Shown here: positions 2,757 to 48,718 of the stretch, one piece after another
Layout of the letters: each line of letters begins with the position of its first letter
How positions within the stretch are numbered: the stretch's first letter is position 1
Origin: Escherichia coli
Lineage (GTDB): Bacteria > Pseudomonadota > Gammaproteobacteria > Enterobacterales > Enterobacteriaceae
Reading direction: 5' to 3' (one strand)
Assembly (NCBI RefSeq): GCF_003334255.1
Contig: NZ_QOWU01000040.1
DNA: 49,174 bases
Program-made: the position numbers and the translations under genes
Notes under the pieces: generated by a model
What the model saw: the letters and a program-made list of their open reading frames with translations, nothing else
Database searches by the model: none
Told to the model about the DNA's origin: nothing

Positions 2757-4087
2757 CACGCCAGTTTCAGATCCCGGGTCATGTTTTCCACGTTGTTTTC
2801 GTGGATCACCACGTTGTCTTCGATACGAATGCCGCCGAACGGTTTCAGTGCTTCAATTTTCTGCCAGTTGAAGTGCTTGCTGAACTGCCCTTCACGCCAC
2901 GGTGCCAGTAGCGATTCGATGAAGTAGATACCCGGTTCGATGGTTAACACCATGCCCGGCTGGAGAATACGGGTGCAGCGCAGGTACGGATATTTTGCCG
3001 GTGCCGCGAGGTGCGTACCGCTATCATCCTGCATAAAACCAGCGACGTCATGCACCTGCAGGCCCAGCGGATGGCCGATACCATGCGGCATAAACGGCCC
3101 GGTAAGATCGTTTTCGACCATCGCTTCTTCACTCATATCGGTGATGATTTGATGTTTACGCAGCAGTTTGGCGATGCGCTGATGGAACTGGATGTGGTAA
3201 TCCACATAGCTGACGCCTGCTTTCATGGTGGCGATCAGCGCCAGTTGTTCATCATTAACGTCCTTCACCAGCTGCGCGTAGTCGTTGTCACTTTTTGCCG
3301 ACCAGGTACGGGTCAGGTCAGCCGCATAGCCGTTATATTCTGCCCCGGCATCCAGCAGGAAGCTGCGCATCTCTTCCGGTGCCTGATGGTCCAGTTTGGT
3401 GTAATGCAGTACCGCAGCGTGTTCGTTAAGCGCCACAATGTTGCTGTAAGGTACGTCGGTATCACGATGACCGGTCGCGGTCAGATAGGCAATGTTGATA
3501 TCGAACTCGCTCATGCCAGAACGGAACGCTTCTTCTGCCGCGCGGTGACCGTTGACCGCCATTTTCTGCGCTTCACGCATACAGGCCAGTTCGTACTCAG
3601 TTTTGAAGGAGCGATAGTAATGCAGGTAGTCGATAACCCCTTTCGGGTTGATGTTGCTGGCCTCAATACCCAGTTGCAGCGCACGTTCCGGCACCGGACC
3701 GATATAACCGATATTGCCGCGCGCAGCAGGCAGCAGGCTACCAATGCCATCGGCTTTCGGCAGCGCGATCACTTCCACATCTTCAGTCCAGAAAGAGGTC
3801 GGCAGCGGTTCGACGTTGTGCCAGTAATCAACCGGCAGATAGAACCACAGTTTCGGCTTGTTCACGCCATCCACCAGCAACCAGCAGTTTGGCACCTGAG
3901 TTACCGGCACCCACGCTTTGAATTGCGGGTTCACTTTAAACGGATAGGGATGATCGTCGAGAAAAACATTGAACAGCTCGCCGGAGTGAATAAGTAACGC
4001 ATCCAGCTTGAAGCGCGCCAGCGCATCGCGAGTCCGTTCTTGTAAGGTAGCTATATGATTTTTATAGAGCGAGGCCAGTGATTCCAT
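2756..4087 (-). CDS. pepQ: Xaa-Pro dipeptidase (prolidase)
   Basis: 443-aa ORF recognised as PepQ (M24 metallopeptidase). Confidence 0.95.
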
Positions 4088-7645: not shown

Positions 7646-7829
<184 letters not shown>

Positions 7830-10283: not shown

Positions 10284-11596
<1,313 letters not shown>

Positions 11597-11637
11597 CCTG
11601 TACTCCATATGACAACCGCCCTGACGGGCGGTTGAAT

Positions 11638-12414
11638 TTATTCTTCAGTTTTTTCGCTTTCTGCTTCAGCGTCGTTTTCCTCTTCCCGATTTCGCCCTTT
11701 ACCAACGTAAAAGCGTGAGAAGAAGACACCGATTTCAAACAGACAGTACATCGGGATCGCCAACAGCGTTTGCGAGAAGACATCCGGCGGCGTCAGCAAC
11801 ATCCCGACAACGAATGCACCAACCAGCACATACGGGCGTTTTTTGCGTAAGTCTTCTGGCGAGGTAATCCCCATCCAGCACAGCAGCACAATTGCTACCG
11901 GCACTTCAAAGGAGACACCAAACGCCATAAACAGCGCCATAACGAAGCTTAAATAGCTGGCGATGTCGGTGGATACCTGCACCCCTTCCGGCGCGGTATT
12001 GGCAAGGAAGCCAAATGCCAGCGGAAAGACCACAAAGTAGGCGAATGCCATGCCGATATAAAACAGCAGAGAGCTGGAAACCAGCAGCGGCACCACCAGG
12101 CGACGTTCATGCTTATACAGCGCTGGGGCGATAAATGCCCACACCTGATAGAGAATCACCGGCGCTGACAGAATCAGCGACACCATAAAGGTCAGCTTGA
12201 TCGGCGTAAAGAACGGCGAGGCCACGTCGGTGGCGATCATCGTTGAACCTTGCGGCAACTGCTTGATCAATGGCGCGGATACCAGGTGATAGATGTCATT
12301 GGCGAAATAGACCAGACACAGGAATATCACGATCACCGCGATAATGCAGTTCAGCAGACGCTTACGCAGCTCAATCAGATGCGTGATAAGCGGTTGAGTA
12401 TCTTCTACAGACAT
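11638..12414 (-). CDS. tatC: Twin-arginine translocase subunit TatC
   Basis: 258-aa polytopic membrane ORF starting [21 protein letters not shown]. Confidence 0.95.
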
Positions 12415-12416
12415 GT

Positions 12417-12932
12417 TTACGGTTTATCACTCGACGAAGGGGAAGGTGCAGCGGTTTTCGGTTCAGCGTCCGCAGCAGGTTTTACCACCGGCTCTGGCGT
12501 GGTTTCTGGCTTCTGTTCCGGCGAACTGGCCTGCGTTTGTGCAGCGGCAGGCGTTACGCCCTCATGCGCAGCTTCATTATCTTTCACCACCGGGTTATGG
12601 ATGGTGTGCGCTTCATCGCTCGCCTTTTCAGGATCGTTTGCAACGTAGGAACGCTTCATCGACTCCGCGGCCTGGCGTAGTTCATCCATCGACGCTTTCA
12701 GTTCGGGCGTCAGGTTAGTGAGGCTCGCCTTTTCAACCTTTTTCAGACTGTCCTGAAACTCCTGGAGTTTTAACTCCTGGGTCAGTTCGTTCTGCACCGT
12801 TGTCGCCAGTGAACGCAACGCGCGAATCCAGCCCGCTACCGTTTTTACCGCCACAGGCAGTCGTTGCGGCCCCAGAACGACGAGGCCGATGATGAACACC
12901 AATAGCAGTTCGCTAAAACCGATATCAAACAC
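12417..12932 (-). CDS. tatB: Twin-arginine translocase subunit TatB
   Basis: 171-aa ORF starting [26 protein letters not shown]. Confidence 0.95.
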
Positions 12933-13283: not shown

Positions 13284-15526
<2,243 letters not shown>

Positions 15527-22333: not shown

Positions 22334-23287
22334 ATGATCGAAGTAAAACACCTGAAAACGCTACAAGCGTTGCGGAACTGCGGCTCGCTCGCAGCCGCTG
22401 CGGCGACGTTGCATCAGACGCAATCCGCCCTGTCTCACCAGTTTAGCGATCTGGAACAACGCCTTGGCTTCCGGCTATTTGTGCGTAAGAGCCAGCCGCT
22501 ACGCTTTACACCGCAGGGAGAAATCCTGTTGCAACTGGCAAACCAGGTACTGCCGCAAATTAGCCAGGCCCTGCAAGCCTGCAATGAACCGCAGCAGACG
22601 CGTCTGCGCATTGCCATTGAGTGCCATAGCTGTATTCAGTGGCTGACACCCGCGTTAGAAAATTTCCATAAGAACTGGCCGCAGGTAGAGATGGATTTTA
22701 AATCGGGCGTGACATTTGACCCGCAGCCCGCCTTGCAACAGGGAGAGCTGGATCTGGTAATGACGTCCGATATTCTGCCGCGCAGTGGCCTGCATTATTC
22801 GCCGATGTTCGACTATGAAGTGCGTCTGGTGTTAGCACCTGACCATCCACTGGCGGCGAAAACGCGAATTACACCGGAAGATCTCGCCAGCGAGACGCTA
22901 TTAATTTATCCGGTGCAGCGTAGTCGACTGGATGTCTGGCGGCATTTTCTTCAGCCGGCAGGCGTCAGCCCGTCACTGAAAAGCGTCGATAACACCTTAT
23001 TGTTGATTCAGATGGTTGCCGCGCGGATGGGTATTGCCGCGCTACCGCATTGGGTAGTAGAGAGTTTTGAGCGCCAGGGTCTGGTGGTGACCAAAACCCT
23101 GGGCGAAGGCTTGTGGAGCCGACTGTACGCCGCCGTGCGCGATGGCGAGCAGCGTCAGCCAGTTACGGAAGCGTTTATTCGCTCAGCGCGCAATCACGCC
23201 TGCGATCATCTGCCGTTTGTGAAGAGCGCGGAGCGACCCACTTACGATGCACCCACAGTGAGGCCAGGATCACCAGCGCGCCTGTAA
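22334..23287 (+). CDS. metR: LysR-family transcriptional activator of metE/metH
   Basis: 317-aa ORF starting [36 protein letters not shown] (LysR-type helix-turn-helix). Confidence 0.95.
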
Positions 23288-24074
23288 TAAACGTTGGCCA
23301 GTGCGGCTGTTGGTGCCAGATAGCCAGGTTTACCAGCAGCCCTGCCGGAACGTGCATATTATTCATAATGCCCAGCGTTCCGGCGTCCACCTGCGTCGCG
23401 CCGTAGTTCCACATAAAGTAGCCAATCCCGGAAGCCACCACGCCAAGAAACACCAGAATGCCCCATTGCAGCGTGGTTTGCGGCATTTTCTGCGCATTTC
23501 CCAGCAAGAACCATGCAATCACTGCCACCAGAAACGCGCCAAGATAGAACCACGCAAAGGCGTTATGCTGTGGCATCGGGCGAGTTTCCATCAGGCGTTT
23601 GTAACCCACCATGCCAATGGCAAAAGTGATATTGGAGAGTTGCACCAGCAGCAAGCCAGTCCAGAAATGGTCGGTGACCTGATCATAGCGAATAATCCCG
23701 GCACCAATCACCGCCAGCAAGGCGCTAAAGGCATAGCCCCAGCGCAGACGGCGCTTACTCATGATGTCATAAATCAGCGTGATGTAGAGCGGCGTCAGCA
23801 CGGTGAACAGCAACAGCTCGGAAACCGTCAGGTAGAGATAAGCGCGGAAACTCAGCATATACATCACGCCAAGCTGCATCGCGCCCACCAGCATATACAG
23901 GCCGACCGTTTTCAGGCTATTGCCACGGGTACGCAGAAACGGCAGAAAAACGAGTGCCGCCAGGCCAACGCGCACCAGCACCGCAAAATAGCTATCGACG
24001 TGCCCCGCAAGGTACTCGCCATAAAAGCTAAAGGAGAAGGCCCACAGAATCGTGGTGATGATAAGTAGCGCCAC
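23175..24074 (-). CDS. yigM: EamA/DMT-family inner membrane transporter YigM (recalled as the biotin transporter BioP)
   Basis: 299-aa polytopic membrane ORF starting [21 protein letters not shown]. Its 3' end overlaps the metR 3' end convergently. Confidence 0.85.
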
Positions 24075-24149: not shown

Positions 24150-24950
24150 TTACGATAAATAGAGTTTACGCAGATAATGCGGCACCGCGTCGTCGGCATT
24201 AGTACCAATCACTTCCAGCTCGGGATGAAGGTCTTTCAGACGCTGGTGCGCACTGCCCATAATGCAGCCTTTCCCCGCCATCGACAGCATTTCGGCGTCG
24301 TTCATCCCGTCACCAAACGCAATACAATCCTTCAGGCTGTAGCCCAGTTTCTTCGCCACCGCTTCCAGCGCATGGCCTTTTGAAACGCCGCCCGCCATCA
24401 CTTCCAGACAGGTTAAGGTAGAGAAACTGACGTTGACGCGATCGCCCCAACGAGCGTTAATCGCCTGCTCCAGCGGCAGCAGTTGTTCATGGGAATCGCA
24501 GGTGAAGAACACTTTGCTGACGCCTTCCGGCTCCAGTAATCCAGGCTCATACAGCGCATATTGGAACACCGCTTCTTTAAAAAAGCGCATCTCTTCCGGG
24601 CGATGGCGATTCATAAACCATTCGTCGTCGCGATAAACGTTAGTAATGATGTCCGGATTGTCGTTGACTACGCCAAACAGATCGCTGGCAATGTCGCGAT
24701 CCAGGTTATGAGCAAAAATCAGATTACCATCCAGATCGTGAACGCGCGCACCATTGGAGGTAATCATGTAAGACTTAATCTCCAGATTATCGCGAATTTG
24801 CCCCACATCAACGTGGTGACGACCGGTCGCAAACACAAAGTTGATGCCGCGCGCGGTGAGCAGCTTCAGAGTTTCTTTGGCGTAAGGGGATAACGTATGG
24901 TCGGGAGAAAGTAACGTGCCATCTAAATCAGACGCAACAACCTGGTACAT
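24150..24950 (-). CDS. yigL: HAD-family sugar/pyridoxal phosphate phosphatase (Cof subfamily)
   Basis: Track ORF 24150..25076. Start trimmed to the internal ATG (MYQVVASDLDGTLLSPDH; the HAD DxDGT motif), 266 aa, 7 bp downstream of the pldB stop. Confidence 0.85.
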   Translation of the reverse strand: MYQVVASDLDGTLLSPDHTLSPYAKETLKLLTARGINFVFATGRHHVDVGQIRDNLEIKSYMITSNGARVHDLDGNLIFAHNLDRDIASDLFGVVNDNPDIITNVYRDDEWFMNRHRPEEMRFFKEAVFQYALYEPGLLEPEGVSKVFFTCDSHEQLLPLEQAINARWGDRVNVSFSTLTCLEVMAGGVSKGHALEAVAKKLGYSLKDCIAFGDGMNDAEMLSMAGKGCIMGSAHQRLKDLHPELEVIGTNADDAVPHYLRKLYLS

Positions 24951-24957
24951 AAGAAAT

Positions 24958-25980
24958 TTAAACCTCTGTAGAGCGGTTTCCGCTGGGTGAGTTATGCCTG
25001 TTGAAAAAATCAACGATGGCGTGGAGCGCGACTGAGCGCATTGCGTCCTTTTCAAAAAGGATCTCATGGTAAGCACCTTTAATTACCAACGGCCGTCCTC
25101 CTTCGACAGGATGGCCCGCGGCGGTGCGGAGTTCACAAAAACGGTCATGCATGCGGTTATCCACCACGCGTTCCTCTTCAGCCTGCAAGAGAAGCGTTGG
25201 CGTGGCGTCATCACCCGCACCGGCTAACACCTGTTCGCCAGCCAGAATACTTTCGCGTACCCAATGGTAGGTCGGCCCACCGACGCGAATCGTTGGGTCA
25301 TCAGCATAGAAGCGTAAGTTACGTCGATATCGCTGTCTGCTGTGGGTCAGTACGTTGATAGCAAACGGCAACGCGCGCCAGCGCCCGGTGCCTATTGCAT
25401 AGCCATCACGGAAACGTGGATGCGCTTCGGCCCAGTTGAGGATCTGCCGTGCCATAAATGACGGCATACGAATCACGATCCCAAACATTGGCGCAGTTAG
25501 CGCAATGGCGTCACATACACCTGGATGGCGTTGCAGAAATAATGTGGAGATCGCACCGCCCATCGAATGTGCCAGTATATAGCGTTTACGCCACGGACCG
25601 GGCTGAACCTCCTGCTGCCAGAATGCCGCCAGATCATCAACATAATCATTAAAGCGATTAACATGCCCGAGATGCGGATCGGCTAACAGGCGACCGGAAC
25701 GTCCCTGCCCGCGATGGTCGATGATTAAGACATCAAACCCCAAATGGAACAGGTCATAGGCCAGTTCCGCATATTTTACGTAGCTCTCAATACGCCCCGG
25801 GCAGATGACTACCACCCGGTCATGGTGCTGTGCGCGAAAACGGACAAAGCGCACCGGAATGTCATCCACACCAGTAAACTCTGCTTCATCACGCTGACGC
25901 CAGAAATCAGTCAGCGGTCCCATGGTAAAAGCAGCAAACGCGTTTTCTCTTGTTTCCCAGTCTTTTTGCTGCTGAAACAT
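24958..25980 (-). CDS. pldB: Lysophospholipase L2
   Basis: 340-aa ORF starting MFQQQKDWETRENAFAAF; alpha/beta hydrolase with a GHSMGG motif. Confidence 0.95.
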   Translation of the reverse strand: MFQQQKDWETRENAFAAFTMGPLTDFWRQRDEAEFTGVDDIPVRFVRFRAQHHDRVVVICPGRIESYVKYAELAYDLFHLGFDVLIIDHRGQGRSGRLLADPHLGHVNRFNDYVDDLAAFWQQEVQPGPWRKRYILAHSMGGAISTLFLQRHPGVCDAIALTAPMFGIVIRMPSFMARQILNWAEAHPRFRDGYAIGTGRWRALPFAINVLTHSRQRYRRNLRFYADDPTIRVGGPTYHWVRESILAGEQVLAGAGDDATPTLLLQAEEERVVDNRMHDRFCELRTAAGHPVEGGRPLVIKGAYHEILFEKDAMRSVALHAIVDFFNRHNSPSGNRSTEV

Positions 25981-48501: not shown

Positions 48502-48718
48502 CCTGATATATAAAAAAACGCCTGCTCTTATTACGGAGCAGGCGTTAAAACAGGTCTGTATGACAACAAGTGGGTGCTTCACTCAACGTTGTGTCCATGG
48601 TGTCTGATGAGGCATAAGCGACATCTGTCAGTGGACGATAAGCACCGTAAACGGCTCTGCGTCATTCCGGAGTTTATGAGGCACTAAGGCGAACATAAGA
48701 GATGGAATGAGCATCTAC
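48502..48718 (-). ncRNA. glmZ: GlmZ small regulatory RNA (activator of glmS translation; formerly SraJ/RyiA)
   Basis: Minus strand reads GTAGATGCTCATTCCATCTCTTATGTTCGCC ... GACCTGTTTTAACGCCTGCTCCGTAATAAGAGCAGGCGTTTTTTT, which I recognise as GlmZ, including its intrinsic terminator (10-bp stem plus T7). No ORF on this strand. The span includes the whole T-run, so the 3' end is approximate. Confidence 0.85.

Follow-up and report, generated by a model that had tools for sequence, protein, structure and literature searches.

The metR-bioP locus and its shared DNA

The stretch of DNA analysed here, called the window throughout, is 49,174 nucleotides of the Escherichia coli chromosome running from hemG to aslA. 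Within it, metR on the plus strand and bioP (also named yigM) on the minus strand run into each other tail to tail, so that the 3' ends of the two genes lie on opposite strands of the same DNA.

22334-23287, plus strand: metR coding sequence, LysR-type regulator MetR, 317 aa and stop (ORF, RefSeq annotation)
23175-24074, minus strand: bioP (yigM) coding sequence, EamA/DMT biotin transporter, 299 aa and stop (ORF, RefSeq)
23175-23287, both strands: convergent overlap of the two coding sequences, 113 bp, also present in Salmonella

Read from the open reading frames of the window, the shared 113 nt encode MetR residues 281-317 and the stop on one strand, and on the other BioP from residue 263, of which two of the three bases are shared, to residue 299 and the stop. 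Hence, the preliminary description of this DNA was correct in its coordinates, gene identities and length, on which the ORFs and RefSeq agree, and in holding that about the last 37 codons of each gene are co-encoded. The RefSeq/PGAP ends of metR and bioP in E. coli are the ends seen here, and RefSeq names yigM "bioP: biotin transporter". MetR matches the NCBIfam MetR equivalog NF011950 over 1-317 of 317 positions; BioP matches TIGR00950, and its function as a biotin transporter rests on the literature (PMC5120140, PMC4049904). The locus is found in 5426 of 5426 complete E. coli genomes, 5424 of which carry at least 80% of a 1.8-kb query. The two frames are phased so that first codon positions of metR face first positions of bioP, second positions of metR face third positions of bioP, and third positions of metR face second positions of bioP; given this phase, there is no site in the overlap that is silent for both genes.

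Because the message of each gene has to include that gene's final 113 nt, the mRNAs of metR and bioP are complementary along 113 nt or more whenever both are made. Antisense transcription across the two 3' ends, which the preliminary description took the overlap to imply, would follow logically from the arrangement, and it fits the finding of no intrinsic terminator-like site on either strand between 22000 and 24400. A shared bidirectional intrinsic terminator was likewise not found at the E. coli locus, and the separated locus of Serratia has a terminator-like site of this kind. RNA folding energies across the overlap are unremarkable, with z-scores of -1.5 and -1.8, and no Rfam family matches within the overlap. 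Our literature search found no paper linking yigM with antisense RNA, and the SMRT-Cappable-seq supplements have no entry for this locus.

Elsewhere in the window, 3 Rfam matches score above the gathering threshold, all on the minus strand: the Erse sRNA at the ubiB/ubiJ junction (14921-15172, 319 bits), GlmZ (48512-48718, 218 bits), and naRNA4 between fadA and fre (7698-7775, 92 bits). Compared with E. coli strain G1/2, the window is identical and in register between 12.5 kb and about 47.5 kb; upstream of 12.5 kb it is shifted by 15 nt, so that an indel of 15 bp is implied in the tatC/tatB area (about 11600-12500). Beyond the bioP start, the longest ORF for yigL (24150-25076, minus strand) begins at a GTG at 25076 and would encode 308 aa, reaching into pldB, while RefSeq has the start at 24950, giving 266 aa.

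Conserved cores, tails and stop codons

How far the conserved part of each protein reaches into the shared DNA can be read from domains, homologs and structure models. On MetR, Pfam places HTH_1 at residues 5-63 and LysR_substrate at residues 86-288, and alignments to PDB 5FO5 and 4AB5, the latter being the solved MetR regulatory domain of Neisseria, reach residue 296. In an alignment of 43 MetR sequences, with non-overlapping taxa included, columns are invariant or nearly invariant up to P302. BioP has 2 EamA domains by Pfam, the second ending at residue 275; alignment to distant BioP relatives stops at about residues 275-285, and conservation in the alignment with non-overlapping relatives extends to V280/P282. 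The AlphaFold2 model of BioP, with a mean pLDDT of 84, closes its last helix (259-280) shortly before residues 284-299, which score below 50, so the BioP tail is probably disordered as modelled. The MetR tail is probably disordered as well, judging by the limits of homology. An AlphaFold2 model of MetR was also computed from the 43-sequence alignment, and with a mean pLDDT of 39 it was unusable. The parts of the overlap are then as follows.

23174-23239, plus strand: last conserved part of MetR, residues 281-302, under the BioP tail; second codon positions nearly invariant
23240-23284, plus strand: MetR tail, residues 303-317 (15 residues), antisense to BioP TM10; inverted codon pattern
23229-23300, minus strand: last TM helix and conserved end of BioP, residues 259-282; AlphaFold2 helix, conserved columns
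23178-23228, minus strand: BioP tail, residues 283-299 (17 residues), antisense to the MetR core; inverted codon pattern
23229-23239, both strands: core junction, MetR A299-P302 facing BioP W279-P282; codons frozen in overlapping taxa

On the DNA, the MetR core reaches as far as 23239 and the BioP core, coming from the other side, as far as 23235-23229, so that the cores meet at about 23229-23239 with no spacer. The 113 bp thus split in three, with the MetR tail over the BioP helix, a junction of 5-11 nt, and the BioP tail over the MetR core; beyond its core, each ORF reads 15-19 codons antisense to the core of its partner. The stop codons where this reading ends are both complementary to codons of the other gene.

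23285-23290, plus strand: metR stop TAA and a second in-frame TAA, reverse complement of BioP F262-I263-T264 (TTT ATT A..)
23175-23177, minus strand: bioP stop TAA, reverse complement of MetR F281 positions 2-3 and I282 position 1

Any Phe-Ile at F281-I282 makes a bioP stop, because TT[T/C] followed by A becomes TAA or TGA when the opposite strand is read, and a bioP stop stands here in all 66 colinear loci. The metR stop lies opposite I263-T/I264 of BioP, where position 264 is T or I; among the same loci a stop stands at codon 318 in 55/66 and at codon 319 in 57/66. When I263 is written with another codon, MetR gains one residue and the overlap becomes 116 bp. Since conserved residues of the partner fix each stop through their reverse complement, the 113-bp length stays stable, and no selection for a given length is needed to account for it.

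The length of the tails calls for little explanation either. In E. coli genes of this region, stops occur in the antisense frame of this phase at 0.043 per codon; the run to the next stop has a median of 15 codons and lasts 15 codons or more with a probability of 0.50. Given abutting cores, open tails of 15 and 17-19 codons are unsurprising; what goes beyond chance is the conservation of the arrangement over four families and the frozen synonymous sites.

Diversity at each codon position was obtained from 66 colinear overlapping loci among the 79 with both genes, as counts that take no account of phylogeny. Outside the overlap, diversity is 0.42-0.45 at third positions and 0.05-0.07 at second positions. 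Sites under the end of the BioP tail have a diversity of 0.022 where they are third positions in bioP and second positions in metR, and of 0.304 where they are second positions in bioP and third in metR; under the end of the MetR tail the corresponding values are 0.455 and 0.092. Codon for codon, BioP 259-282 has the normal pattern, with diversity near 0 at second positions and high at third positions, and the MetR tail codons have diversity near 0 at third positions and high at second positions. Both tails are inverted in this way, their second positions changing about as fast as the silent sites of the partner, and therefore most tail residues are under little or no selection of their own.

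The reverse effect is seen in codons for conserved residues. Third positions that are nearly invariant (diversity below 0.1) make up 53% of such codons in metR and 46% in bioP inside the overlap, compared with 4-5% in the rest of the genes (metR p = 3e-7, bioP p = 1e-4 by Fisher's test, not corrected for phylogeny). When codon usage is compared between 67 overlapping and 12 non-overlapping loci, the synonymous sites that are frozen in the overlapping lineages vary in the 12 non-overlapping taxa.

MetR I282: ATT in 66/67 overlapping loci; mostly ATC or GTG in non-overlapping loci
MetR C290: TGC in 65/67 overlapping loci; 7 TGC and 5 TGT in non-overlapping loci
MetR F295: TTT in 64/67 overlapping loci; 7 TTT and 5 TTC in non-overlapping loci
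MetR A299: GCG in 66/67 overlapping loci; varies in non-overlapping loci
MetR R301: CGA in 67/67 overlapping loci; varies in non-overlapping loci
MetR P302: CCC in 66/67 overlapping loci; varies in non-overlapping loci
BioP V280: GTC in 66/67 overlapping loci; GTG in 10/12 non-overlapping loci

Both frames leave their mark strongly where the cores join and only weakly in the tails, and part of the codon freezing belongs to this junction. The tails do not appear to be entirely neutral, as a few of their residues seem to be held by selection, namely BioP Q286, R291 and E299 and MetR P311 and S313. A constraint shared by the two protein tails, which the preliminary description read from the overlap, is therefore borne out in part. 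At the DNA level it stands, with synonymous codons frozen only in overlapping lineages. For the protein tails it holds only weakly, since the constraint is asymmetric, the tails are mostly an antisense shadow of the partner core, and natural truncations exist.

Relatives, natural alleles and knockouts

A BioP profile search of the genome collection was used to fetch the 80 closest loci, 79 of them with both genes, and all stops were recomputed from the reading frames. The genes overlap in 70 of the 79 loci, by 113 bp in 54, by 116 bp in 9, by 95 bp in 6 (Rahnella, with a MetR of 311 aa) and by 71 bp in 1 (Biostraticola). Every sampled genus of Enterobacteriaceae has the overlap, with BioP at 299 aa and MetR at 317-318 aa. 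Further out it is found in Yersinia, Rahnella, Rouxiella and Chimaeribacter of the Yersiniaceae, in Brenneria of the Pectobacteriaceae (95 bp, MetR 311 aa), and in Biostraticola of the Bruguierivoracaceae. There is no overlap in Erwiniaceae, Serratia and Gibbsiella, where both genes are kept; there BioP is 286-291 aa and the tail of the E. coli type is absent, and MetR is 305-319 aa with different tails, as in Pantoea and Gibbsiella. As to the conservation of the C-terminal ends, proposed earlier as a check on the overlap, the lengths of 299 and 317-318 aa are kept in Enterobacteriaceae, and the tails are absent or different in relatives without the overlap. The more distant BioP relatives P0125 and P0126 do not have metR adjacent; the other outgroup candidates, P0123, P0124 and P0130, are Yersiniaceae-like or degenerate loci.

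The separated loci differ in what lies between the genes. In Serratia the spacer is 4-36 bp and has a terminator-like hairpin for metR; in Serratia quinivorans (L068, 3362-3385) this consists of a GC-rich hairpin of 10 bp with a T-rich run after it, on the metR strand. In Gibbsiella (L089, 2862-3188) a spacer of 327 bp is an array of REP-like palindromic repeats. Nothing comparable to the Gibbsiella repeats or the Serratia hairpin is found at E. coli metR/bioP. In Erwiniaceae (Pantoea, Erwinia), a two-repeat DUF1456 gene of 159 aa is placed between bioP and metR in the direction of metR.

L075 3689-4168, minus strand: DUF1456 gene, with equivalents in L061, L065, L078 and L080-L083, occupying the site where the E. 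coli cores abut

The Serratia MetR tail (e.g., GAGVTSVKPLASQP) resembles the Yersinia tail (NAGVPIARPLSQLPQ) though it is no longer antisense to bioP (L062, L068, L074, L076). This likeness hints at separation by duplication of the shared segment, with a DNA resemblance to the Yersinia overlap that is weak at z of at most 3.2; when a tandem duplication was looked for in Serratia, no DNA similarity was found between the bioP and metR 3' ends of the same genome (z about 0-1). One metagenomic locus (L092, about 3102-3202) is degenerate with broken gene calls, both genes being about 50% identical to those of E. coli, and about 100 nt are still shared by the homology tracts of metR and bioP in it; a fast-evolving symbiont may be its source.

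Erwiniaceae are said to stand next to Enterobacteriaceae, and Serratia within Yersiniaceae, in the tree by Adeolu et al. of 2016. With Hafniaceae, Morganellaceae and Budviciaceae outside the sample, one origin of the overlap followed by at least 2 separations would be the simplest reading by parsimony on that family tree.

Two natural alleles truncate BioP, and in these the overlap falls to 71 bp and 68 bp.

L090 1501-2358 and 2288-3241; L091 1501-2355: natural truncation alleles, BioP ending at 284-285

The first is a Salmonella-type allele (66 member sequences; serovar Gaminara per one source) with BioP Q286stop, where a single base change is both BioP Q286stop and MetR V296M. In the second, a separate lineage, BioP stops at codon 285. 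Going by such alleles and the lengths in relatives, most of each tail would seem to be dispensable.

The shared DNA has practical consequences for genetics, since a deletion or insertion in either metR or bioP alters the other gene. By the Keio design of Baba et al. from 2006, all but the last six codons of a gene are reportedly removed. The Keio yigM allele by this design presumably removes MetR residues 288-317. The Keio metR allele by the same design cuts BioP inside its last TM helix. The standard metR knockout thus also takes the end of bioP, and the standard yigM knockout takes the last 30 codons of metR. A deletion of metR phenocopies loss of yigM: it is synthetic lethal with bioA, and it confers sensitivity to a BioA inhibitor in rich medium (Cote et al. 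2016, PMC5120140). The phenotype therefore shows that the shared DNA matters for bioP, though with a cut inside the helix it does not bear on the BioP tail itself. [quoted passage not shown] Phenotypes of metR or yigM are open to misattribution, as Cote et al. showed for metR and bioA.

Explanations and comparison with known systems

We conclude, with a probability of roughly 85%, that this is a real and ancient tail-to-tail overlap of two unrelated functional genes, produced by passive extension of both 3' ends where the cores abut. In this explanation, the MetR core (to about P302) and the BioP core (to about V280/P282) would meet without intergenic DNA, and because the cores abut, each ORF therefore reads on antisense to the partner core until its first stop. 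That first stop would be the one supplied by the reverse complement of conserved residues in the partner, and the tails of 15 and 17 residues would be mostly passive antisense "shadows". There is no room for an intrinsic terminator at the junction, and what halts transcription inside the partner gene is probably Rho or a collision of polymerases. The arrangement would persist since a separation needs an insertion or duplication exactly at the junction.

That the pair is a genuine convergent overlap of protein-coding genes is plain from the shared 3' ends, the recognised families, the lengths matching orthologs and the two-frame footprint. The preliminary description had left room for one ORF really ending earlier through a frameshift or mis-called stop, and a general reason for such suspicion exists in that Palleja et al. 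2008 judged most overlaps above 60 bp to be mispredictions, 124/178 for the convergent ones (PMC2478687). Here neither stop is mis-called, ortholog lengths match across many genera, and stops, unlike starts, cannot be mis-called. The same ends recur in 5424 E. coli genomes and dozens of genera, the selective footprint of both frames goes up to the stops, and the MetR equivalog match covers 317/317 positions with lengths equal to those of orthologs, so an artefact of annotation or sequencing is effectively refuted. Another proposal is that MetR and BioP each need their C-terminal tail for function, and that the overlap is kept because neither tail can be dropped. We hold this to be unlikely. 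The stability of 299 and 317 aa in Enterobacteriaceae and the synonymous freezing opposite BioP Q286, R291 and E299 and MetR P311 and S313, seen only in overlapping lineages, speak for it; however, most tail residues change at their second positions no less freely than the partner does at synonymous sites, BioP manages with 286-291 aa in Serratia, Gibbsiella and Erwiniaceae and MetR with 311 aa in Rahnella and Brenneria, BioP ends at 284-285 in natural alleles of the Salmonella type and others, and the pLDDT of the BioP tail is below 50.

Biotin synthesis uses S-adenosylmethionine, so a physiological link between metR and bioP is conceivable, and with the conservation of the overlap across four families and the lack of a terminator between or inside the 3' ends in E. 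coli, it counts in favour of the overlap being kept as a regulatory device, in which complementary 3' ends or polymerase collisions would couple the 2 genes in the manner of an excludon. Against this, Erwiniaceae and Serratia/Gibbsiella separated the genes and kept both, passive extension fully accounts for the anatomy and the tail lengths, the folding z-scores of -1.5 and -1.8 are nothing out of the ordinary, and no paper was found that pairs yigM with antisense. A regulatory device is thus distinctly improbable, and nothing in this analysis shows a dedicated one. The more specific version, a selected coupling that makes transcription of metR and bioP antagonistic through polymerase collision, Rho access or RNase III acting on the duplex of at least 113 nt, has nothing specific in its favour and we consider it very improbable; if true, it would link the methionine/SAM regulon to biotin uptake and be the reason why four families hold the arrangement. 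Passive double extension of abutting cores remains our preferred explanation. The metR/bioP overlap opens no long-standing question.

The nearest theoretical counterpart is the model of random 3'-end extension for convergent overlaps by Kingsford, Delcher and Salzberg 2007, as summarised in PMC3887535. So far as that summary gives the model, the likeness is that a gene runs beyond its conserved core to the next stop antisense to its neighbour, with tail lengths that fit. The overlapping parts here lie mostly beyond the core shared with homologs, their lengths agree with the model, and in non-overlapping relatives the C-termini are shorter or unrelated. What differs is that metR and bioP are both extended at once, with the cores touching. 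The phases of conserved convergent overlaps were analysed by Rogozin et al. 2002, as tabulated in PMC2478687; in the phase of metR/bioP, each third position faces a second position, which is what leaves no jointly silent sites.

As for rarity, Palleja, Harrington and Bork 2008 counted 3035 convergent cases among 42,055 overlaps in 338 genomes (PMC2478687). Convergent overlaps above 60 bp numbered 178 in that survey, of which 54 were possibly real and most of those were kept only in very close species (PMC2478687), so the earlier remark that such an overlap is uncommon is a fair one. We did not find the metR/bioP pair in the supplementary list of the survey (PMC2478687). It belongs with that class in being a long convergent overlap that survives comparison of orthologs, and it is unlike most of the candidates there in spanning four families. 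Within the window, the only other convergent overlap is that of rfaH (10329-10817, plus strand) and tatD (10814-11608, minus strand), which have the same orientation and an ordinary 4-bp overlap at 10814-10817; unlike metR/bioP, they share only stop codons and no co-encoded residue.

Excludons and overlapping convergent units, reviewed in PMC7154746, are similar in that convergent genes have transcripts complementary at their 3' ends. They differ in that the functions of metR and bioP are not known to oppose each other, and the complementarity here is known from sequence, with no reciprocal regulation found. The closest precedent is the locus itself in E. coli K-12, where the overlap was already recorded, in the RefSeq annotation and by Cote et al. 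2016 in mBio (PMC5120140), at the same coordinates and without being dissected there. Beyond Cote et al., the present analysis separates cores from shadow tails, traces each stop codon to residues of the partner, and gives the phylogenetic distribution. With these, the locus becomes a deeply conserved example of a stable long convergent overlap, for which the lineages that have separated the 2 genes are natural controls.
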